This document shows positions 5,006-56,675 of a DNA stretch of 64,000 bases, piece by piece; within the stretch, counting starts at the first letter, position 1; each line of letters begins with the position of its first letter. This DNA comes from a virus (taxonomy: Duplodnaviria > Caudoviricetes): IMG/VR virus record IMGVR_UViG_3300015214_000001, positions 128,001-192,000 of that record; one strand, 5' to 3'. The position numbers and the translations under genes are program-made. The notes under the pieces were generated by a model. It was not told where the DNA came from and did no database searches. It was given only the letters and a program-made list of their open reading frames with translations.

Positions 5006-5671
5006 TTAATAATCCTCAGTCATAACATTTCCATCAGCGTCTACTAATACTTCCCCATCTGCTGTTAATATTAAGTTTGCAGGGAAGTGTATGGCCCATT
5101 TCATACCAAGTGTTTCATTGCTATCTACTACTAATGCAAGATCATCATTACCAACTGGTAAACGGTTAAATAAACTGCCGTTACTAGCCATAATGTCGCC
5201 TTTAGCTTGGGTGAATTGTGCGACATCGACCAGATCACCAAGTGCGCTTACTTTTATTGCGGGTATCCATTGCCCTGATATGATGTCATACGCAATAGTT
5301 CTACCATCTGCAACGCCTGTTACGTTCACATCCAATAATTGACTAAAGTTTCTGGGAATAGCACTTGCTTGCCATAAACCAGTCGCACTGTTATAAGTCA
5401 GAACTTGCCCATTTTGTGCTGCTATGACATCAACGTCTGTCAGATCATTTAGCGTGGTTGCGCCACCCCCCCCCCCACCTGATGAAAATTGTATCCAAGC
5501 ATCGCCATCAGCATTGGTAAGATATAAAGCGCCATTTCCATCCGTGCCACCATCAGCAGCCCAATATACATCCCCGAAGCCTTCGGGGACAGGTGGTAAC
5601 GCAACATCCTCACCACCATCTAGCCGCGATTTATGTAATGTATTAAATGGCAAACTATCGTGAAAAGGCAT
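5006..5671 (-). CDS. Putative tail fibre-associated protein containing an in-frame G11 tract
   Basis: LNDLTDV repeats, NGQVLTYN..TGLW, KGDI...RLPVG motifs; poly-Gly linker encoded by GGT GGG GGG GGG GGT. Confidence 0.6.
   Translation of the reverse strand: MPFHDSLPFNTLHKSRLDGGEDVALPPVPEGFGDVYWAADGGTDGNGALYLTNADGDAWIQFSSGGGGGGATTLNDLTDVDVIAAQNGQVLTYNSATGLWQASAIPRNFSQLLDVNVTGVADGRTIAYDIISGQWIPAIKVSALGDLVDVAQFTQAKGDIMASNGSLFNRLPVGNDDLALVVDSNETLGMKWAIHFPANLILTADGEVLVDADGNVMTEDY
5466..5476 (-). repeat. G11 homopolymer (C11 on + strand), currently in frame
   Basis: 11 consecutive C at 5466-5476. Confidence 0.95.
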
Positions 5672-45414: not shown

Positions 45415-46884
45415 TTAGCTACCATCACCTAGAATTGAACCATCACTTACTGCGCGGTTAAATTCGCCATTTAAATCTTTATCTTTCCACATCAAATGAA
45501 TAGTGCCTTTTTTGTACACACGACAATTGAAGAATTCACTCTCAAACACATCGCTGTAAGTAGATTGGTTTTTGCGACACTTATCACTATGATCTTTTAG
45601 CGCGTCACCGACTGAGTATATGGTTGTTGGATCAACCCCACGTAACCAGCACAAGATTTTTTCTAAATCTTCAATAGCGGATTTAGACCAGTTCTGGTAA
45701 GAGTAAGACCAGCTTATCCCCCATGTATCTACACTTACAGCATAGGGGAAGATATTCTTCATGGCGATTTTCCATGATTTATTGTTCTTCCAAGTTTCGC
45801 CATTTTTCCCATCAATGCTCATCATTGTTTTAGCAACTGCATAGGCGGCCTCTTGCATCAAACGGTCTTTATTGAACATAAACGCTTCTAAGACTAGATA
45901 GATGTTTTTTACAGTAAAAGCCGTTCTCATACCATGCTGTTGTACTTCCTGTAAAAACTTCTGACGATATTCATGTGTGGTTTGTTGACCGAAGCGAGTA
46001 GCTTGAAAAACAGCTTCCCAGAAACGAACCTTGATATTTTTAATTTCTGCATTAACACTTTCATATCCATCATTCTTGAATTGAACGATTTCGCCAGTGG
46101 TTGTTCTTAAGACTTCTTCATAGTGCTTAAGCTGTTTTAATGCTTCAATTGCTCGGTTATAGCGTTCAACCAATAGCGTGATGCTATCTGCACGAATAAC
46201 CAACCCACCAGATACTTCGTCTTGATCGGCAACTGTAAAGTCATCACGGCTATCCATTTCTTGCCAATTAACGCCCGAGCTTGTTTCTTCCTTATCAGGC
46301 TTGTACAGCCAAATAATAACAGTCTCGATATTTGTTTTACGAATTGCTTCTGAAAACCCACCTTGAACATATTCGCAGTTCCCGAAAATATCAATCAAAT
46401 CTACTAGCTTTTTGCGGTCATGTGTGGAAGGGTTCTTGACTGCATCCGCGTTCAATAATACAACCATCTTGCCGCCTGGCGCTAAAATATCCCACATTTT
46501 TAATACGTGCTGCACACCATTATTAAATGGTGGATTTGCCACGATAACATCAATAAGAAACGGGTCACTTTCAGCCAAAAAGTCAGTGCCGATTACAGTA
46601 TAACCTTTTGATTCAAGTATTCGACTACGTTCAGGATTGACTTCGTAGACCAACATATGTTCAACATTAACACCTGTTCGTTTTAAGTAATCTAGGATAT
46701 GTCCTTCACCTGCGCTTGGTTCGAGCAGTGAATATTTAACAGGCAATGATCTACGAATGTGTTCCCCACGCTTTGTTTCTAGGATAAATGGCGCTACCAT
46801 TTTTTGAATTAATGGCAGTGGGGTTGGGTAAAACTGTTCTTCATCGTGATACACGTTATGCTCCTTAATGTATATTGCACTCAA
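45415..46884 (-). CDS. Amino-(N6A/N4C) DNA methyltransferase with DUF4942-like C-terminus
   Basis: FYPTP, LLEPSAGEG, DFL, NPPF; C-term F..RVYKKGTIHL. Confidence 0.85.
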   Translation of the reverse strand: MSAIYIKEHNVYHDEEQFYPTPLPLIQKMVAPFILETKRGEHIRRSLPVKYSLLEPSAGEGHILDYLKRTGVNVEHMLVYEVNPERSRILESKGYTVIGTDFLAESDPFLIDVIVANPPFNNGVQHVLKMWDILAPGGKMVVLLNADAVKNPSTHDRKKLVDLIDIFGNCEYVQGGFSEAIRKTNIETVIIWLYKPDKEETSSGVNWQEMDSRDDFTVADQDEVSGGLVIRADSITLLVERYNRAIEALKQLKHYEEVLRTTTGEIVQFKNDGYESVNAEIKNIKVRFWEAVFQATRFGQQTTHEYRQKFLQEVQQHGMRTAFTVKNIYLVLEAFMFNKDRLMQEAAYAVAKTMMSIDGKNGETWKNNKSWKIAMKNIFPYAVSVDTWGISWSYSYQNWSKSAIEDLEKILCWLRGVDPTTIYSVGDALKDHSDKCRKNQSTYSDVFESEFFNCRVYKKGTIHLMWKDKDLNGEFNRAVSDGSILGDGS

Positions 46885-47729
46885 CTATACAATCGCTTTC
46901 AATATCATCTAAAAACATCATTCGCAATTGCTTAGGTTTATCTCTATCGGCTCGCATAGTTTCTATAAATAATTCTACCAGTGGATAAGGCTTTTTAACA
47001 CCGTCAATTGTTCGCGTCAAAATGGCATAATCGGCATATTTAGGGTTACTTCTCATCTTATTCTCCCAAACCATTGCACGCATGAAATTTGGTAAATTGA
47101 AATAGATCGCTCCACGCCAATATTTAGTACCAGCTTTAAAACAAGTACCGCCACAATTGCCAGTTACCATATTACCCAGTTCGCGTTCATAGTAGCTAAT
47201 CGGCAATTTGATATTATGTTGTTCACAGTATGCTAATGGGTCTTTTATTCGTGGGTAAAACCAGAGAGGGTATTTAACATATACATTGCGTTTAGACCAA
47301 TTTTCGATGGGCGCTGGCAATCTTCCGTATGGCTTGTCAGTTCTGGCGCGTTGATACCGATCCTTCATGTTGTAACCAATCAACATGAAAACCTTATTGT
47401 ACCCCCCCCATAATACGAATAGTTTCAACATACTGTTGAATAGGCTTTACTTTTAGCTCAATCGTGCAATTGGCAACACGGCTATTAAATATCATGCCTT
47501 GTTCTTCTGATATGTCATAGGGAGTTTTCCCGCTATTTAAGCGATGGATTTTAATCCTCAATAGGTTTTCAAGGTCACGCAAAAATCTATGATGATCTTC
47601 ATGCTCTATATTGGTGTCGGCAAATACAGGGTAAATATGTTCATGGGGATATAGTTCATAAGCTCTAATTAGGGCAGCTGCGCTTGATGCGCCACTTGAC
47701 ACTGAAACGATATAAGCCGATTTTTCCAT
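46865..47729 (-). pseudogene. PAPS-reductase/PP-loop family gene 1, frameshifted at G8 (would be 287 aa with G7)
   Basis: 5' half VSVSSGASSA, FADT..EHED..RFL, C..ELK; 3' half IGY, PL, NCGGTCFKAG..YW; the halves change frame within ATG GGG GGG GTA CAA TAA. Confidence 0.8.
47402..47409 (-). repeat. G8 homopolymer at frameshift
   Basis: 8 consecutive C on + strand. Confidence 0.95.
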
Positions 47730-47761
47730 GTATATCCTTTATCCTTTTCTATAATAAAAAT

Positions 47762-47802
47762 AGAACGCACTAAGTTTAACTTGCCTTAGTGCGTTCTGTC
47801 AA
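47762..47802 (-). promoter_or_regulatory. Inverted repeat overlapping a TTGACA -35 upstream of PP-loop gene 1
   Basis: AGAACGCACTAAG...CTTAGTGCGTTCT; minus strand TTGACA-18-TAAACT and T-tract. Confidence 0.5.
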
Positions 47803-47823
47803 ATAAATTATTATTGTTGCAGG

Positions 47824-48024
47824 CTATGTCAAATCTTTAATAACCTGGAAGCTAAGGTTATCAATTGGCATAATCCATGCACCATCTTTCGCGCTGTTCT
47901 TTTGTAGTTCGCGCACGTTAGGGTGAAACGTTTTTCCACCAACGGGATATAATGTCCCGTTCTTATGGGTAATAAAGCCGATAACGCCGTTTGGCGCGGG
48001 TGATGCAATTACTTTTTCACTCAT
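47824..48024 (-). CDS. Hypothetical protein
   Basis: 66 aa with GAGGGG RBS. Confidence 0.55.
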   Translation of the reverse strand: MSEKVIASPAPNGVIGFITHKNGTLYPVGGKTFHPNVRELQKNSAKDGAWIMPIDNLSFQVIKDLT

Positions 48025-48075
48025 TTCCCCTCTTTTCTATTTTTGTGATCTTGTACTCGATCTTAAAAAATAAAA

Positions 48076-48342
48076 TTAACTAAACAACTCACGGATTACA
48101 GCATTGCTGACTACGGTGATGCTATTAGATACAGGCAATGATTTGCCATCAATCACTTGATGCTCACCGCATTCTTGTCGTAAAGCATCGCACGTAAACA
48201 TGCGAATTGTCGGCATGTACGTAATTCGCACGACTTTGGTACGAAACACGATTGAACCAAAGAACGGGTCAGTTGTGTTCATCAAGTTTTTAATTGCTGT
48301 CACAACTTCTTGTTGTGATGTGACGTTGAATGTATTGCTCAT
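48076..48342 (-). CDS. Hypothetical protein, paralog of 53826..54230
   Basis: V.S....AI......P(F/Y).G.I.F...Y....F.C.ALR...DGK..PV...RE shared. Confidence 0.65.
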   Translation of the reverse strand: MSNTFNVTSQQEVVTAIKNLMNTTDPFFGSIVFRTKVVRITYMPTIRMFTCDALRQECGEHQVIDGKSLPVSNSITVVSNAVIRELFS

Positions 48343-48649
48343 TTTTACCCCTTTAGTTGGTAGATATACTACAAGGCTACTATGCAGGTTAGGTAAATGT
48401 CAACATAAGGTTTTGTTAAGAAATGTTAAATTTAGAATTAATACCCCTATGGTGATGTTTTCTGATACTAGGTGCAGTGAGTAGAAAACAAATTAGAACA
48501 AAAAATATTATCATTAATTCAACGCTTTTAAATGTATCGCATAAGGGCTTGGATTTTACCCTCTATTAATTGTTAAGATTGTGTAAATCTTCCCTAAAAA
48601 TTGGATATTCACCCTAGATAACCACTACCTAAACTGCTATCATATAGGG

Positions 48650-49120
48650 GTGTTGAATGATTGTTTTCAACACAGCACGTTAACAACACAAGGGGAAACA
48701 GCTATGTCCTATTACTACTTAGATCAAACTAGCTTGCCTATTGAACCGATTAGCTTTGTGCAAATGTGGTTCATGCGATATATGCAAATGCCGTTAACGG
48801 AAGGTCAAGCGGAGTCCATACGTCAAGACCTATTATCCCGACAGGCAAAATTGCTACAATGTGCTAACTTTGACCATAAAACAAAGCAATTTGTCGAATG
48901 GTGGGAATATCGCACATTGAACAAAGAAGCATTTATCTTAGGCATGTCTAGCCAAGTGGTAATTCTAAATCGGTCTGTGCTGAGACTAAATAACAATATG
49001 ATTTACCCATTGTTACGCGCCTCAGTATGGGAAAGCACCTACGAAACTTTCGACAATCGCTATATATTCAATATTGGCGAGTCGGTTGCTCAACACATCC
49101 CTCACGAAAGTTTCGCCTGA
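48650..49120 (+). CDS. Hypothetical protein (likely start MSYYY)
   Basis: AAGGGG RBS before internal ATG; first gene of + strand island. Confidence 0.55.
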   Translation: MLNDCFQHSTLTTQGETAMSYYYLDQTSLPIEPISFVQMWFMRYMQMPLTEGQAESIRQDLLSRQAKLLQCANFDHKTKQFVEWWEYRTLNKEAFILGMSSQVVILNRSVLRLNNNMIYPLLRASVWESTYETFDNRYIFNIGESVAQHIPHESFA

Positions 49121-49127
49121 TTATTCA

Positions 49128-49158
49128 TACTTGACAGATAGTTACTATCTGTCAAGTA
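49128..49158. repeat. 14-bp perfect inverted repeat
   Basis: TACTTGACAGATAG-tta-CTATCTGTCAAGTA upstream of clamp gene. Confidence 0.75.
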
Positions 49159-49197
49159 ATATTTTTATCAAACAAACACAAGGAAAAGGAAATAAAA

Positions 49198-51594
49198 ATG
49201 TCCAATGTTAATGCAATTATTCACGGAACAAAGTTTAATCGCTTCGTAGACTTAGCCAAGCGATTAAAGACATGGTATGGGCAAAAGGATATTGAAGTAT
49301 CCATTTACAATAACAAAGTGTATGTGTCGATGTTTCAAGGCGATTTAGTCGCTATCATCGGCAATACATATAATGAGGAAAATCTTTGCTTTTCGTTTCA
49401 GTTGGATGAAATCACAAGTAAGATCGCTAGTCTTGCTGATATAAGGTTAGAACTGTCCGTGCCGATTGATGGTGGTAATGCCACATTGTCAGACAGTGGT
49501 GCTACAATCAACATTCCAGCTGTTAAGCCACTAGGTCTTATCAGTAAAGAAATTACCAGCTATGATGATAGGCTAAATGTGACACAATTCATGACTTTAG
49601 ATAAAAAGGTTATGAAAGAACTAATCAAGTCTATCTCAGCAACATCACATGAGGTTTTATTTATTATTGGTGATGGTTCTAAAGTTCGGTTTATGACATA
49701 TGATGGTTTGGGCATTTCGCAAATCATTGTTGATGTTGAAGCTCATGAACCGTTCCAACGGTCTTATTATGCAAAGCCAGTTTTAACAGCGCTTAAGGGA
49801 CTATCTCTAAGCAAAGATGTTAAAACAATCAACTTGTCCTTAAATGAAAACGATGGTTTTCTAGTGTATGCCGATGATGAATTGACATACTTAGTGAGAA
49901 CCGACCACAATAAAGACGATTATAACCCTGAGAAATACCCATTAAATTTTCAAAGCAAAATTGACTTTATGATCGTTAATGAGCAAGCGCAATTTGTCAA
50001 CCTTAACGGAAAGTCAATGTCATTAGCGCAAGTCATCAGCGATAAAGGCTTAGATAAGCAAACCTGTTGGATTACGGCTAATGCGCTATCTGAAACCATC
50101 ACAATAGCAAATATTATTGGTGGTTACAATGATGTAACATTCCCTGCATTTGTCAAAAATGGGACTGAAATTGCTGTAGGCATTAATGGCAAACTGCTAA
50201 AAAGTTTGCTCACGACTTATGGTGACTTAATGTTTAGTATCCGTGATGATGCTCTTGTTATCACAGTTAATGGTCAAGGTGGCTTTGAAGTAAACAGCAT
50301 TATCGCACCGATGGCACTTGACTTTAACAATGATGTGGCGCGTAACGTAATTAAGCCTGTTATGAGTGTGAATCCAGCCACATACATTGACGCGAATGAG
50401 TTCTATGCTATTATTCAAGCATTGCTCAACAATAGTGATAGTGGGACGATCTCTATCTACAATAGAGATAATGGGTTACAAGTCATTAGTGGCAATGGGG
50501 TTAAGTATGAGGTTGGCTTTGTGACAAATAAGCCAATTGAGGGGATGCCAATTAACGCTCGCGCTAACTCGAATGCGTTCTTCAAACCTAGCGATAAGAA
50601 GTCTTTATCGGCAAAGTTTAGCAATCTAACTAGTAGCATGTTGAGCGTGTACGTTATCGACAATAGCATTAAGCTATATGACGAAAACAATGAGATTATC
50701 ACATTGCCCTTTTATGTCAATGATGACACCAAAGAAGTTGTTATTACAAACTATAAGCGTACTGAGTTCTTCAATAGCAAACAAAAGGCAGTTGTCACAT
50801 TAACCAGCGATGACTTTAGAAATGCCGTTAACATCGCTAGTAAATTCGCGGCAACCGATAACAATAGACCTACAATCAATAGTGTGCATTTCTCTTTCCG
50901 TAAATCAGAAGTTGAAATTGTTGGCACTGATGGTTATAGGCTGAGTGTAGATACCAGAAATAACCTAGCGGGTACTGTTGATGCTGATGGTTTGTGCCTT
51001 GAGCCTAACGCACTGCTTAATACGCTTAAATCAATTGCTAACGCTTATATCTCATTAGTGCTGGTTAATGATGGTGATACTGTAGCTATTATCGGACATG
51101 ATGAACCAGATAACCTAACATCTGACAGTAGCAAAACTATCACCTATCTGTTTATCATTCCTGGTAGATTTCCTGATTATTCAGTAATCTTACCTGCTAA
51201 ATCAAGCATGATCTATTTTGAAGAAATTGAGATCACGTCTGATAAAATCACAAGTAATGGTGATAGTTTTGAAACAGTGTTTGAGCGTGCAAATAAACTA
51301 TCAAGCGACAATCATTTTCTAGGTGTATTCACTGTAAAGAGATATACAAGTACAGTTACATTCAGTGTCCCTCATGCCGACAAAAAAGCACAAGGTCATG
51401 CTCTATCGCTAGACATCCCCGCGCAAAATATTCATGCTGATTACAATATCGGTGTGAATATAAAATACTTGTTAGATGCTGTGAAGTTAAGCGATAAGCA
51501 CAAACATATGTTGTACTTTAGAGAACAACGCGACTATCTAATTGGTAAGTTTGGAACAGTTACATACGTTATCATGCCAATGTTGAACGCCTAA
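49198..51594 (+). CDS. Double-length DNA polymerase III beta (sliding clamp)-like protein
   Basis: C-half: FAATDNNRPTINSVHF, VGTDGYRLS, GRFPDY..ILP, IGVNIKYLLDAVK, YVIMPM; N-half has degenerate equivalents (MTYDG, VGINGKLLKSLL, SIIAPM). Confidence 0.8.
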   Translation: MSNVNAIIHGTKFNRFVDLAKRLKTWYGQKDIEVSIYNNKVYVSMFQGDLVAIIGNTYNEENLCFSFQLDEITSKIASLADIRLELSVPIDGGNATLSDSGATINIPAVKPLGLISKEITSYDDRLNVTQFMTLDKKVMKELIKSISATSHEVLFIIGDGSKVRFMTYDGLGISQIIVDVEAHEPFQRSYYAKPVLTALKGLSLSKDVKTINLSLNENDGFLVYADDELTYLVRTDHNKDDYNPEKYPLNFQSKIDFMIVNEQAQFVNLNGKSMSLAQVISDKGLDKQTCWITANALSETITIANIIGGYNDVTFPAFVKNGTEIAVGINGKLLKSLLTTYGDLMFSIRDDALVITVNGQGGFEVNSIIAPMALDFNNDVARNVIKPVMSVNPATYIDANEFYAIIQALLNNSDSGTISIYNRDNGLQVISGNGVKYEVGFVTNKPIEGMPINARANSNAFFKPSDKKSLSAKFSNLTSSMLSVYVIDNSIKLYDENNEIITLPFYVNDDTKEVVITNYKRTEFFNSKQKAVVTLTSDDFRNAVNIASKFAATDNNRPTINSVHFSFRKSEVEIVGTDGYRLSVDTRNNLAGTVDADGLCLEPNALLNTLKSIANAYISLVLVNDGDTVAIIGHDEPDNLTSDSSKTITYLFIIPGRFPDYSVILPAKSSMIYFEEIEITSDKITSNGDSFETVFERANKLSSDNHFLGVFTVKRYTSTVTFSVPHADKKAQGHALSLDIPAQNIHADYNIGVNIKYLLDAVKLSDKHKHMLYFREQRDYLIGKFGTVTYVIMPMLNA

Positions 51595-51615
51595 CAAATA
51601 TCAGCACAATATTAA

Positions 51616-51655
51616 ACAAAAAGAGCAAGCTATTGATATGGCTTGCTCTTTTTGT
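51616..51655 (+). terminator. Intrinsic terminator
   Basis: ACAAAAAGAGCAAGC...GCTTGCTCTTTTTGT. Confidence 0.85.
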
Positions 51656-51849
51656 ATTCTATGGGGGATACAGTCATTATATAACAACTAACTGCATTTG
51701 CCTAATCGCGCTAATAATAGAAAATTTTGTTCTAAAAACAAAAAAATCTTCTTGGTTGTTGAAATTATTTGTTTGTCTGACATAGGGCTTTCTCACAGAG
51801 GGGTATAATCAGGCTCATTATACGTTTGTGCTAATGAGCCTGATAGATG

Positions 51850-52794
51850 TTATTCTAGCATTTGAACGTGTTTAGATGCACCAAAGTCAAGCAACTCATT
51901 AGGAAGTTGATTAAGTCTTACCTGTTGCTCATACCACTTGATAACACTTGCATTCCAGATCACAGCAGCTAAGTGATCTTCTGATGTATCCTCATTAGCA
52001 AATGCAATAACATGACGCAACATAGAAGCATAAACCCTACTAACGTTAATGCCCTTTTGCCAATTATTGACACCATATTTAGCAGCGCCGACATAGTATA
52101 GCCTAGCAACGTGATTCAACGCGATTTTAGGGATTAATGTGTAATCGCACTCTGATGTATTATAAAGTTCGGCAAACTGGGGTTTATCGCTGTTATATAG
52201 TGCCTGATCGGTAGCGCATCCACCATACCCACTTTGCAAAGTTTTCAGCACATCTAATGGGATTAGATGATACATTGGCTTGCCTTGCTGATTATCTCTG
52301 TGAGCGCCTGTTGTAAACTCGTCAGTTACATTGCCACCCTTGACAATTGGCTTATCGCTGTCAAGTTCTAACTGAGGAATCACATCGCCTAGTGTTTTGT
52401 TGGTCATATTGAATTGATGAATAAGCTCATCTAGGCCACCATCTTCATAATAGTGTTTCCAGCGAACCTCTTTAGTCTCAGGGTCAATCCATGCGTGAGA
52501 TAGAGCAGACCATGAGTAATAACCCTCATTATCCATTGAATACGTTTTCTCATCAGCACATGAGCCTTTTATGAATTTCACTTCTCCTTCGGCAATGTCG
52601 TAAACCCATAGCGTATTTGTCATTGCTACAATTAAAGCCTCATGCACATGATCGACAAAAACAGCTATCGGCTTATATTGATTAACAGATTCGTAAGGAT
52701 ATTTCCATTTTTTCTCTGATATGTGCCGATAGTATAGTGAACGATCACGATGCACTAACTCATAATCTTTAAATCTTACGTACTTTACTGACAT
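51850..52794 (-). CDS. dATP/dGTP diphosphohydrolase (DUF5664-like) domain protein
   Basis: TGAHRD..GKP.Y.LIP, GAAKYG.NNWQKG, SMLRH, EDHLAAVIWNA. Confidence 0.8.
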   Translation of the reverse strand: MSVKYVRFKDYELVHRDRSLYYRHISEKKWKYPYESVNQYKPIAVFVDHVHEALIVAMTNTLWVYDIAEGEVKFIKGSCADEKTYSMDNEGYYSWSALSHAWIDPETKEVRWKHYYEDGGLDELIHQFNMTNKTLGDVIPQLELDSDKPIVKGGNVTDEFTTGAHRDNQQGKPMYHLIPLDVLKTLQSGYGGCATDQALYNSDKPQFAELYNTSECDYTLIPKIALNHVARLYYVGAAKYGVNNWQKGINVSRVYASMLRHVIAFANEDTSEDHLAAVIWNASVIKWYEQQVRLNQLPNELLDFGASKHVQMLE

Positions 52795-53814
52795 TCTTGC
52801 GCCCCTTGAACGATTGTGTTACAGGATTTAATGCTAAGTCAATATCAAGCCCACCAGTGCCATCAAATGCCCTTTGACCGATGCAAGATTGACACAGATT
52901 AAAGGGGTCTTGATTATCCAATTCTTCTGGCTTAATCGACTTTTGTAAATGCCACCCTTGAGTCAATCTGTCAGGGTGTAAGGTCATATCTTCTTCATCC
53001 CATATTCCTGATTGAACTAAGGCTAATTGTAATTCATATGCCGTTTGAACTAGTTTTTCACGCAATTGATCTATAGTTTCATACTCTGGACTAACAATTG
53101 CGCGTCGTTCACGTTCACCGATGCTCAAATTCGCATAACATTGACATTCATAAGAATGCTTCATGTAATCAGCATATTCGTTGCGCGGGATGTTAAGTAT
53201 CTCTATTGCTAAATCGCGTTCTTGAATGTGCCAATCAAAGATGGGGTTAGCTAGAGATTTAATGACTTTGCCACGCTTATCCTTTTTAAGCATCATCAAA
53301 TCAACAAAGCTATTTCGACGTGAGCTTTCAGCTTTCCGTAAGCCTGAAATTTGCATTACTTCACTCTGTTTGACCTCTAACTTTTTTGCCACTTGAGAGA
53401 ATAACTGATCGAGTAGCTTACCCTTCAATTCACGATACATAATAGAGTGATAGGCTGGTGATGGAAAACCCCATGAAATAATCAATTGCTCATATCTGCC
53501 TTTTTGTGGTGGCTTGCCAATTCTTAATTCCCATTGATATAAATTGGCAATATCATAGATGTATTGTTTAGTTTCTTTAGCGCCTGTTAGCGTATTAGCC
53601 CAACAAGCGCCGACAAAACTATCAGGGAAAGCCAGTTGAGCGATTCTTCCTGCTAAAACAGAATCGTGACCACCAGACCACGATACAGCTACGCCTTTAA
53701 ATTCGTAAAGATGGTATTCTTTGCGAATCCTCTCAATTGTTTCATGTATTTTCTGTTCTACCCCCCCCGATTTGTTTCAAAGTGGGTTGTATCCTGAACA
53801 GTTTTGTTATTCAT
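52769..53814 (-). pseudogene. PAPS-reductase/PP-loop family gene 2, frameshifted at G8 (would be 348 aa with G9)
   Basis: ATG at 53814 gives MNNKTVQDTTHFETNRGG*; the frame after the tract reads VEQKIHET...VAVSWSGGHDS...NTLTG...GFP.P..H..Y.ELK...SGLRKAESSRR...NPIFDW...ECQC. The track ORF 52769..53485 is only the 3' part. Confidence 0.85.
53761..53768 (-). repeat. G8 homopolymer at frameshift
   Basis: 8 consecutive C on + strand. Confidence 0.95.
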
Positions 53815-53825
53815 TATAGCCCTTT

Positions 53826-54230
53826 CTAGCTATCAGCTTCAATGTAATAGCCTTCTTTGTGTACATCATACGCGGGTAAATCAATTAATGACTTACCCAT
53901 TTCACGGTTTAATGCAGAGATAACTTGTTCAGTATCTCGTGTGACTGGTTGCCACTTCCCATCACTGCTGAAATCACCTTCATTGAACTGCTTTCTTAAT
54001 GCAGAGCAATAAAAGCCTGTAGGCTTTAGGTATGATAGCTCACAACAAACGCGATATTCGCCTTGATCGAACCATATCAAACCTAAGTAAGGTTCTTCTG
54101 ATAAAATAATCCCATCAATCGCTTGCCTAATATCAGGCAAGGATTGCACTACAATGTTTCTTTTGGACATTATATCCTCTCTTTTTGATCTATGCACCCC
54201 TCTAACGATATAACCACAATTATACAACAT
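53826..54230 (-). CDS. Hypothetical protein, paralog of 48076..48342 (likely start MSKRNI at 54170)
   Basis: GAGG RBS before internal ATG; motif alignment with 48076 protein. Confidence 0.65.
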   Translation of the reverse strand: MLYNCGYIVRGVHRSKREDIMSKRNIVVQSLPDIRQAIDGIILSEEPYLGLIWFDQGEYRVCCELSYLKPTGFYCSALRKQFNEGDFSSDGKWQPVTRDTEQVISALNREMGKSLIDLPAYDVHKEGYYIEADS

Positions 54231-56492: not shown

Positions 56493-56675
56493 TTATTGAT
56501 TTTGACTGTTTATATCAAAATCTAATAACATTTGATCTTCGACTTGCTTCTTCTTTAACGCTTCCATAATGTTATCTGGCTCGTCATTGTCAAGCTCACC
56601 ATCATCAAAAAGGGGTGGTAATAGATTTGCTTTGCGTTTTTGTAAAAGCGCTCTGAGTAGATCGTGGTTACTCAT
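56493..56675 (-). CDS. Hypothetical protein
   Basis: 60 aa, ATGA overlap with upstream gene. Confidence 0.5.
   Translation of the reverse strand: MSNHDLLRALLQKRKANLLPPLFDDGELDNDEPDNIMEALKKKQVEDQMLLDFDINSQNQ

Follow-up and report, generated by a model that had tools for sequence, protein, structure and literature searches.

Two PP-loop genes out of frame at G8 tracts in a jumbo phage genome: candidate phase-variable DNA-modification loci

Here we focus on two genes of an uncultivated jumbo phage (Duplodnaviria; Caudoviricetes) that belong to the PP-loop (PAPS reductase-like) class of enzymes and are each broken at a run of eight guanines. They lie in a stretch of 64,000 nucleotides (nt), called the window throughout, which corresponds to bases 128001-192000 of the 208,458-bp record IMGVR_UViG_3300015214_000001; positions are those of the window unless given as genome positions, which count along the whole record. 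A change of one nucleotide in either tract restores a full-length, intact gene. Tracts of this kind are far more numerous in the genome than expected, and it is at such tracts that most of the differences between assemblies of the phage fall. On balance, we consider it probable, by a modest degree, that both tracts act as slippage switches, like those tracts for which variation is seen, and that they are OFF in the majority of phage genomes. Switching at the two tracts, an activity of the genes in DNA modification and a benefit against host defences are what we infer.

The interrupted PP-loop genes

Both genes are encoded on the minus strand, and the C8 runs of the plus strand at 47402-47409 and 53761-53768 are hence read as G8 on the coding strand. 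The elements of the two loci are the following.

47402-47409, minus strand: G8 tract 1, encoding Gly-Gly in a variable loop of gene 1; frame regained at G7 or G10
47394-47729, minus strand: N-terminal part of gene 1, 111 aa; PAPS_reduct match (4e-5); TAA stop two codons past the tract
46865-47401, minus strand: C-terminal part of gene 1 in the +1 frame; four conserved Cys; internal ATG at 47386
53761-53768, minus strand: G8 tract 2, at the 5' end of gene 2; frame regained at G9 or G6
53758-53814, minus strand: leader frame of gene 2, 19 codons (18 sense codons and a stop); ATG at 53814 with an AAGGG ribosome-binding site
52769-53776, minus strand: main frame of gene 2, 335 codons from stop to stop; SGGHDS, a four-Cys set and a PAPS_reduct match (6e-8)

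With one G removed, gene 1 encodes a 287-aa protein (P0152) that, when aligned with eleven relatives (278-298 aa, 51-57% identical), is matched over 98-100% of its length. Among the columns that are at least 90% conserved in these relatives, 89 of 93 are kept in the repaired protein. Its PP-loop reads SSGASS where the relatives have SGGxSS, so that Ser replaces an invariant Gly, and Asn stands at a second invariant Gly position. A model of the gene 1 family, built on relative P0154 with a mean predicted local distance difference test (pLDDT) score of 86.8, places the tract in a variable loop that connects a helix to a strand.

The arrangement of gene 2 is different, with the break at its very beginning. 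The leader frame terminates at TAG 53758-53760, directly after the tract, and the first 96 codons of the main frame include no ATG, GTG or TTG; without a shift of frame, therefore, the PP-loop of gene 2 cannot be translated. G9 or G6 joins the two frames into a protein of 348 aa, in which 25 of 26 conserved columns are kept, the sole deviation being the start Met. Since the homologues of gene 2 start at about the position of the tract, the 18-residue N-terminal stretch encoded by the leader, tract glycines included, is lineage-specific and has replaced the ancestral start. A variable loop and the start of the homologous region are typical places for contingency tracts. These results bear out much of a first-pass annotation of the window, which had gene 1 broken at 47402-47409 and restored to 287 aa by G7 or G10, gene 2 broken at 53761-53768 and restored to 348 aa by G9 or G6 with its PP-loop hidden upstream of the called frame, and both genes otherwise intact. 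The tract positions in both genes were exact, SGGHDS does lie in a main frame without a start of its own, and the conserved columns and full-length relatives agree with intact genes.

Poly-G tracts in the genome and between assemblies

The whole genome contains 39 G/C runs of at least 8 nt (38 of them unique), where Markov models of order 0 to order 3 predict 0.7-3.3. This 12-55-fold excess is beyond chance. Run lengths peak at 8-9 (29 runs of 8, nine of 9 and one of 11), and only three G/C runs of exactly 7 occur in the genome. By the same models, A/T runs of at least 8 nt are about 10-fold depleted, with 2 observed against 21-25 expected; long A/T runs are thus avoided while G8-9 runs are kept. 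Within the window, the two C8 runs and a C11 run at 5466-5476 are the only G/C runs above 6, and no A/T run is longer than 7. The absence of longer A/T runs and the G11 at 5466 as sole further G/C run of 8 or more had been recorded in the first-pass annotation, correctly for the window, but the latter statement hid the genome-wide pattern of 39. Nearly all tracts, when oriented on the G strand, continue with TA, and the 123-bp terminal overlap of the record starts within a poly-C tract. Fourteen tracts are coding, eight of them out of frame and six in frame.

About half of the tracts serve as promoter spacers. In 18 cases (about 18-20) the tract lies in the spacer of a conserved motif, TTGACA-N7-G8/9-TA(G/A)AAT; the motif is often extended by N5-TATAAG, and a ribosome-binding site and start codon follow within 30-40 nt. 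From their sequence, these motif copies are probably sigma-70-type promoters with the tract in the spacer. They cluster at genome 1-50 kb and 202-208 kb, with examples at L007:4608-4615, L008:10920-10927 and L008:11322-11329 and none in the window, and near-consensus copies have spacers mostly of 15-16 bp. A poly-G/C run between the -35 and -10 elements sets the promoter spacer length of porA and opc in Neisseria and of fim in Bordetella. The phage differs from these phase-variable promoters in having a whole family of about 18-20 near-identical tract-bearing promoters.

Exact-protein look-ups led to five other assemblies of the same phage: ERZ27247376 (208,473 bp) and ERZ27247346 from ENA, JGI 3300028603 (195,068 bp), and the Logan assemblies SRR8449813 and SRR6484323. 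All are consensus sequences, compared over about 190 kb, and over this length they are 100% identical to the present record except at homopolymers, with no ordinary single-nucleotide polymorphism. Four poly-G tracts differ by one nucleotide in length, one substitution falls in the G11 tract, and one T run differs, as listed here.

Genome 1253: G9 here; G8 in SRR8449813
Genome 15414: C8 here; C7 in ERZ27247376
Genome 33423: G9 here and in the JGI contig; G8 in ERZ27247376 and SRR8449813
Genome 116431: G7 here; G6 in ERZ27247376 and SRR6484323, where the fibre gene is called intact (316 aa)
Genome 133471, inside the G11 tract: G here; C in ERZ27247376 and SRR8449813 (G5-C-G5)
Genome 51520 (close to where an AAA_21 ATPase gene starts): T6 here; T7 in ERZ27247346; the sole difference outside G/C tracts

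The change from G7 to G6 at genome 116431 is an OFF-to-ON switch of a tail-fibre gene, and three of the varying tracts belong to the poly-G promoter family. If the terminal overlaps are 141 bp (guessed from the k141 contig name) and 123 bp, ERZ27247376 and the present record differ, once these are discounted, by 3 nt, equal to the three tract contractions. The differences look like those of hypermutable tracts, with at least three haplotypes among what are consensus assemblies only; homopolymers also concentrate errors, and some of the assemblies may share reads. Tracts of at least 8 nt are over-represented and lie in frames or promoters, and in the two PP-loop genes a change of one nucleotide restores a full-length, intact gene. 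The first-pass annotation had proposed the two PP-loop genes as phase-variable contingency loci switched by tract length. The frameshifts are indeed real and reproducible, the repaired proteins are intact, and four other tracts differ by one nucleotide, one of them from OFF to ON. The system is not specific to the PP-loop genes, with half of the tracts serving as promoter spacers, and no change of length was found at the PP-loop tracts themselves.

Slippage and other explanations of the G8 state

If the PP-loop tracts are slippage switches, slipped-strand mispairing during phage DNA replication would add or remove one G, and coding tracts would toggle the reading frame. The majority genotype of every sampled population would then have both PP-loop genes OFF, and minority genomes with G7 in gene 1 or G9 in gene 2 would make full-length PP-loop ATP-pyrophosphatases. 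ON alleles would probably also restore translational coupling to the genes downstream, which encode an amino-methyltransferase and a MazZ-like deoxynucleoside triphosphate (dNTP) diphosphohydrolase, and progeny would come to differ in DNA or nucleotide modification.

Several observations weigh against this account. The five other assemblies, which vary at four other tracts, have G8, the OFF length, at both PP-loop tracts, and with G8 there in every assembly, switching at the two sites is inferred rather than seen. No protein cluster in a collection of 15 billion proteins represents an ON allele, and in consensus assemblies minority variants cannot show. The relatives of gene 1 have unrelated residues at the tract loop, with neither a tract nor Gly-Gly, contrary to the conserved tracts for which the first-pass annotation had suggested looking. 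The lost invariant Gly residues of gene 1, that of the PP-loop included, may mean decay. Near relatives of the phage were not found by megablast against phage records, by peptide-pattern scans for viral contigs with both genes or by a promoter-motif scan, in which the phage's own and near-identical records were probably masked. Scanning metagenomes for the gene 1 tract, with its length left free, likewise returned no match, the window's own and near-identical records being probably masked there too.

The same facts raise the question of whether the loss of function is fixed, that is, whether slippage has inactivated two dispensable accessory genes and left young pseudogenes without adaptive switching. 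We regard this as rather unlikely. It would accommodate the OFF state in all assemblies and the absence from gene 1 of the invariant PP-loop Gly and of another invariant Gly. The gene 2 family is, moreover, sometimes inactivated: a relative on a different phage-like contig (L006:1044-2072, 42% identical) carries a TAA in frame at the codon that is Glu in relative P0004, the frame being otherwise intact. A 13.4-kb deletion variant of the phage, described below, shows that accessory DNA-modification genes are dispensable. However, both PP-loop genes are intact apart from the frameshift and keep nearly all conserved residues, and the eight tract frameshifts are concentrated in DNA-modification and fibre genes, which looks like a pattern and not like random decay. 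As the tracts are mutable elsewhere in the genome, frequent reversion would be expected, and a "fixed" loss is therefore hard to sustain.

Another explanation holds that G8 is the expressed state. The frames would then be joined by ribosomal slippage (-1 in gene 2, +1 in gene 1) or by slippage of RNA polymerase, or gene 1 would encode a two-piece enzyme through termination at TAA and re-initiation at ATG. The sequence G GGG GGG would permit perfect re-pairing of tRNA-Gly in both directions, a TAG stands directly after the gene 2 tract, and G8 is stable across assemblies. In gene 1, ATG 47386 lies 7 nt past the TAA of the N-terminal part, in the frame of the C-terminal part and in the arrangement AAGG-N5-ATG. 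A perfect hairpin of 9-11 bp, TTCATGTTG...CAACATGAA, begins 12 nt past the tract (within 47342-47401, minus strand) and encloses this ATG. Against these features, the two genes would require opposite shifts, and a cut at residue 108 of the core alpha/beta domain is an unlikely design for an enzyme. Past the tracts, the RNA folds no better than shuffled sequences do (z about -1) unless the tract is included; with it, the gene 1 fold reaches z -4.3, a result that we do not trust because the G run itself pairs. Fibre paralogs with identical flanks carry G6, G7 or G8, which points to change at the level of DNA and not to a tuned signal. Overall, we consider expression from G8 unlikely.

It is quite unlikely that the tracts are mainly internal copies of the poly-G promoter that drive the downstream methyltransferase and diphosphohydrolase genes, with the frameshift as a side effect. 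When the flanks of other tracts were scored with a weight matrix built on the 18 clear poly-G promoters, the downstream half at gene 1 scored 9.4, above the 99.9th percentile, and the upstream half at gene 2 scored 5.6, above the 99th percentile, while the fibre and C5-methyltransferase tracts were at background. The TA that follows nearly all tracts also fits a promoter origin. Gene 1, however, has no -35 element (score -13.6), and in the flanks of the gene 2 tract, TTGAAA-N6-G8-TAGAAC, the -35-like hexamer is one base too close. Generic sigma-70 sites in the region are no more frequent than in shuffles (46 against 42), in a scan that disallows the 14-15 bp spacers of the tract motif. A promoter role would also leave unexplained why intact PP-loop frames are retained on both sides of each tract, and it is compatible with slippage switching.

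Sequencing or assembly errors at homopolymers, with true lengths of G7 and G9, are extremely improbable: although all differences between assemblies are in homopolymers, where errors concentrate, G8 is found at both sites in each of six assemblies, which come from four or more read sets and three assemblers, no break occurs in long genes elsewhere (of 1319, 1196 and 994 aa), and opposite errors would be needed at the two sites.

Candidate function, known systems and further tracts

Searches of the repaired proteins against hidden Markov models and structures, which the first-pass annotation had proposed as a check, identified them as intact PP-loop enzymes with full-length relatives. With its SGGHDS motif, gene 2 falls within the PAPS_reduct/PP-loop family PF01507 at 33.4 bits against a cut-off of 22.5, and gene 1 scores 24 bits against the same cut-off though its loop reads SSGASS. 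Both genes fall in phrog_424, annotated as PAPS reductase. Fold searches with the gene 1 family model and a gene 2 model (mean pLDDT 87.1) led to the general PP-loop class only (CysH/APS reductase, TtuA, GMP synthetase, LarE, YcfA, Cap9). The best sequence match of the gene 1 family is PDB 21fy chain "PptA". From these family and fold matches, the chemistry would therefore be an ATP-dependent adenylation of some carbonyl or phosphate. As an assimilatory PAPS/APS reductase (CysH), neither protein qualifies: NCBIfam cysH models give 16-21 bits against cut-offs of 154-165, and the C-terminal halves of both families have sets of four conserved Cys in place of the ECGLH catalytic Cys motif.

PAPS-reductase-domain enzymes such as DndC, SspD and BrxP act in DNA phosphorothioation, where their genes stand beside one for a DndD/SspC/BrxC-type NTPase (PMC12914056). 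The PP-loop ATP-pyrophosphatase fold and conserved Cys are common to these enzymes and to the phage proteins, whereas the phage genes match only the nucleotide-binding half and have a methyltransferase and a dNTP diphosphohydrolase as neighbours. Specifically, gene 1 matches the PADLOC SspD model in its N-terminal half only (8e-13), and gene 2 has a weak, partial match to BrxP in the nucleotide-binding half (1e-4). By their family resemblance to SspD and BrxP, both genes may plausibly act in DNA modification. Phosphorothioation of the Dnd, Ssp or BREX type 4 kind was rejected, as no DndD/SspC/BrxC-type ATPase was recognised among the flanking genes scanned with Pfam and/or PHROGs; nor was a partner nickase or desulfurase recognised among them.

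The immediate neighbours of the two genes are as follows.

45415-46884, minus strand: amino-methyltransferase with an NPPF motif and a fused DUF4942, next downstream of gene 1
48076-48342, minus strand: 88-aa protein with no family assigned, paralog of the 134-aa protein upstream of gene 2
51850-52794, minus strand: 314-aa protein with a MazZ-like dATP/dGTP diphosphohydrolase domain, overlapping the end of gene 2 by 26 nt
53826-54230, minus strand: 134-aa protein with no family assigned, paralogous to the 88-aa protein; its end separated by 11 nt from the gene 2 leader

These neighbours make a DNA or nucleotide substrate plausible. The two loci had been described as parallel cassettes, each with a small protein of one paralog family upstream and an overlapping DNA or nucleotide enzyme downstream. 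Both genes are of the PP-loop class, the small upstream proteins are paralogs (31% identity, E 1e-8), and the overlap of gene 2 with the diphosphohydrolase gene is confirmed. For gene 1 the overlap depends on the start: its end lies 20 nt inside the methyltransferase gene if translation begins at TTG, or 10 nt before the start called in other assemblies. The PP-loop genes themselves are not close paralogs, with no significant BLASTP match between gene 1 and gene 2. The MazZ-like domain recalls the Z-genome (2-aminoadenine) pathway, which was rejected: it is the only component found, PurZ (PF00709) being absent from the whole genome while all control genomes were matched.

Phage contingency loci have been recognised only recently, in Campylobacter phages in 2021 and T-even phages in 2025, and with such loci already known the idea put forward for the PP-loop genes is not new in kind. 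Campylobacter Fletchervirus phages have hypermutable poly-G tracts (Sorensen et al., 2021, via PMC10877375 and PMC12823448). The likeness is close, in that they are large phages of lytic type with several intragenic tracts of G8 or longer, the tract length varies in the population and receptor-binding proteins are switched ON and OFF (PMC10877375; PMC12823448). In the present phage, by contrast, half of the tracts lie in promoter spacers and many in C5-methyltransferases, a helicase and PP-loop enzymes. It has some 38 tracts in a genome of 39.5% GC.

In phages T2 and T4, poly-A runs form contingency loci, among them the A9 run in the DNA-glucosylation gene agt (Gomez, Barrick and Waters, bioRxiv 10.1101/2025.10.21.683753). 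As in the present phage, a homopolymer lies in a phage DNA-modification gene; through reversible frameshifts in it, T-even progeny escape modification-dependent or modification-sensitive restriction, and this is exactly the logic that the first-pass annotation proposed. The T-even poly-A runs are no more frequent than is usual in a genome, mutants make up fractions near 1e-3 and the ON state is in the majority (bioRxiv 10.1101/2025.10.21.683753), whereas the present phage has a strong excess of poly-G and an OFF majority, and avoids long A/T runs. In bacterial phasevarions and phase-variable restriction-modification methyltransferases, such as the Type IIG enzyme of C. jejuni, poly-G tracts in methyltransferase genes switch methylation patterns stochastically (PMC4889913). 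The phage set differs in being encoded by a virus, in having several unrelated modification genes that are switchable and in that no cognate restriction partner was seen. What is unusual here is how large the tract set is and how deliberate it looks, along with the family of promoters that have poly-G spacers and the concentration in DNA-modification genes, and the genome would be an extreme case among phages with contingency loci.

If the PP-loop cassettes do switch, the phage could hedge modified against unmodified DNA where restriction systems attack either form, and the cassettes would be candidates for new modification chemistry. A more far-reaching and rather doubtful proposal is a virus-encoded "phasevarion". 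Each of the ~38 tracts would switch on its own, and together they would control no fewer than five DNA-modification enzymes, three receptor-binding fibres and about twenty early promoters. The two PP-loop cassettes within it, each composed of a PP-loop enzyme, its small paralogous partner and a methyltransferase or dNTP diphosphohydrolase coupled to it, would make a so far undescribed modification of DNA or nucleotides. The progeny of each burst would then be mixed in epigenotype, host range and early-expression programme, in many combinations, and candidate chemistries would be sulfur or amine substitution after adenylation of base or backbone.

The coding tracts of the genome are located as follows.

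Window 47402 and 53761: out of frame; the two PP-loop genes
Genome 38068: out of frame; gene of unknown family, two frames of 184 codons
Genome 69395: out of frame; C5-methyltransferase 2, C8 on the coding strand
Genome 72518: out of frame; C5-methyltransferase 1, with motif I before the tract and a part after it that matches PF00145 positions 44-323 (8.7e-71)
Genome 114638 (G8) and 116431 (G7): out of frame; two tail-fibre-like paralogs
Genome 123532 (G9): out of frame; SNF2/DEAD helicase adjoining an N6/N4 methyltransferase
Genome 73645, 81637, 92759, 127929 and 193314: in frame
Genome 133466 (window 5466-5476, minus strand): in frame; the G11 tract, in a tail-fibre-like gene (window 5006-5671)

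The C5-methyltransferase and helicase tracts are in keeping with DNA modification that can be switched. Each of the eight out-of-frame genes is split or truncated by gene callers, and such phages are thus systematically mis-annotated. Three tail-fibre-like paralogs stand in tandem at genome 113827-117589, two of them each followed by a gene of 277-281 aa with no family assigned. Two carry the tract in a Gly hinge (G8 and G7, both out of frame) between identical flanks; the third is intact, lacks a tract and reads LSGGGSGG at the same spot, from which it follows that G9 or G6 gives the open frame of the two broken genes. The polymorphism of the G11 type recurs in a distant relative, with G10 in L028 and G6-A-G3 in L027, and such an interruption would stabilise a tract.

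C5-methyltransferase 3 (genome 193061-194008, minus strand) has a 312-aa frame that is open from end to end. Text resembling a target-recognition region and motif IX (NWATPAARDW, LNPEWVEMLMGYPVGWTD) is encoded in another frame, of 231 codons, that overlaps the first and also passes through the G9 tract. This gene and two tracts are removed by the 13.4-kb deletion in JGI 3300028603 (genome 184546-197948), in which window position 56545 is joined to genome 197949 with a 10-nt overlap at the junction. Between the two PP-loop loci lies the gene of a 798-aa protein (49198-51594, plus strand) in which beta-sliding-clamp domains are confined to the C-terminal half (residues 535-795) and the N-terminal half has no family match.

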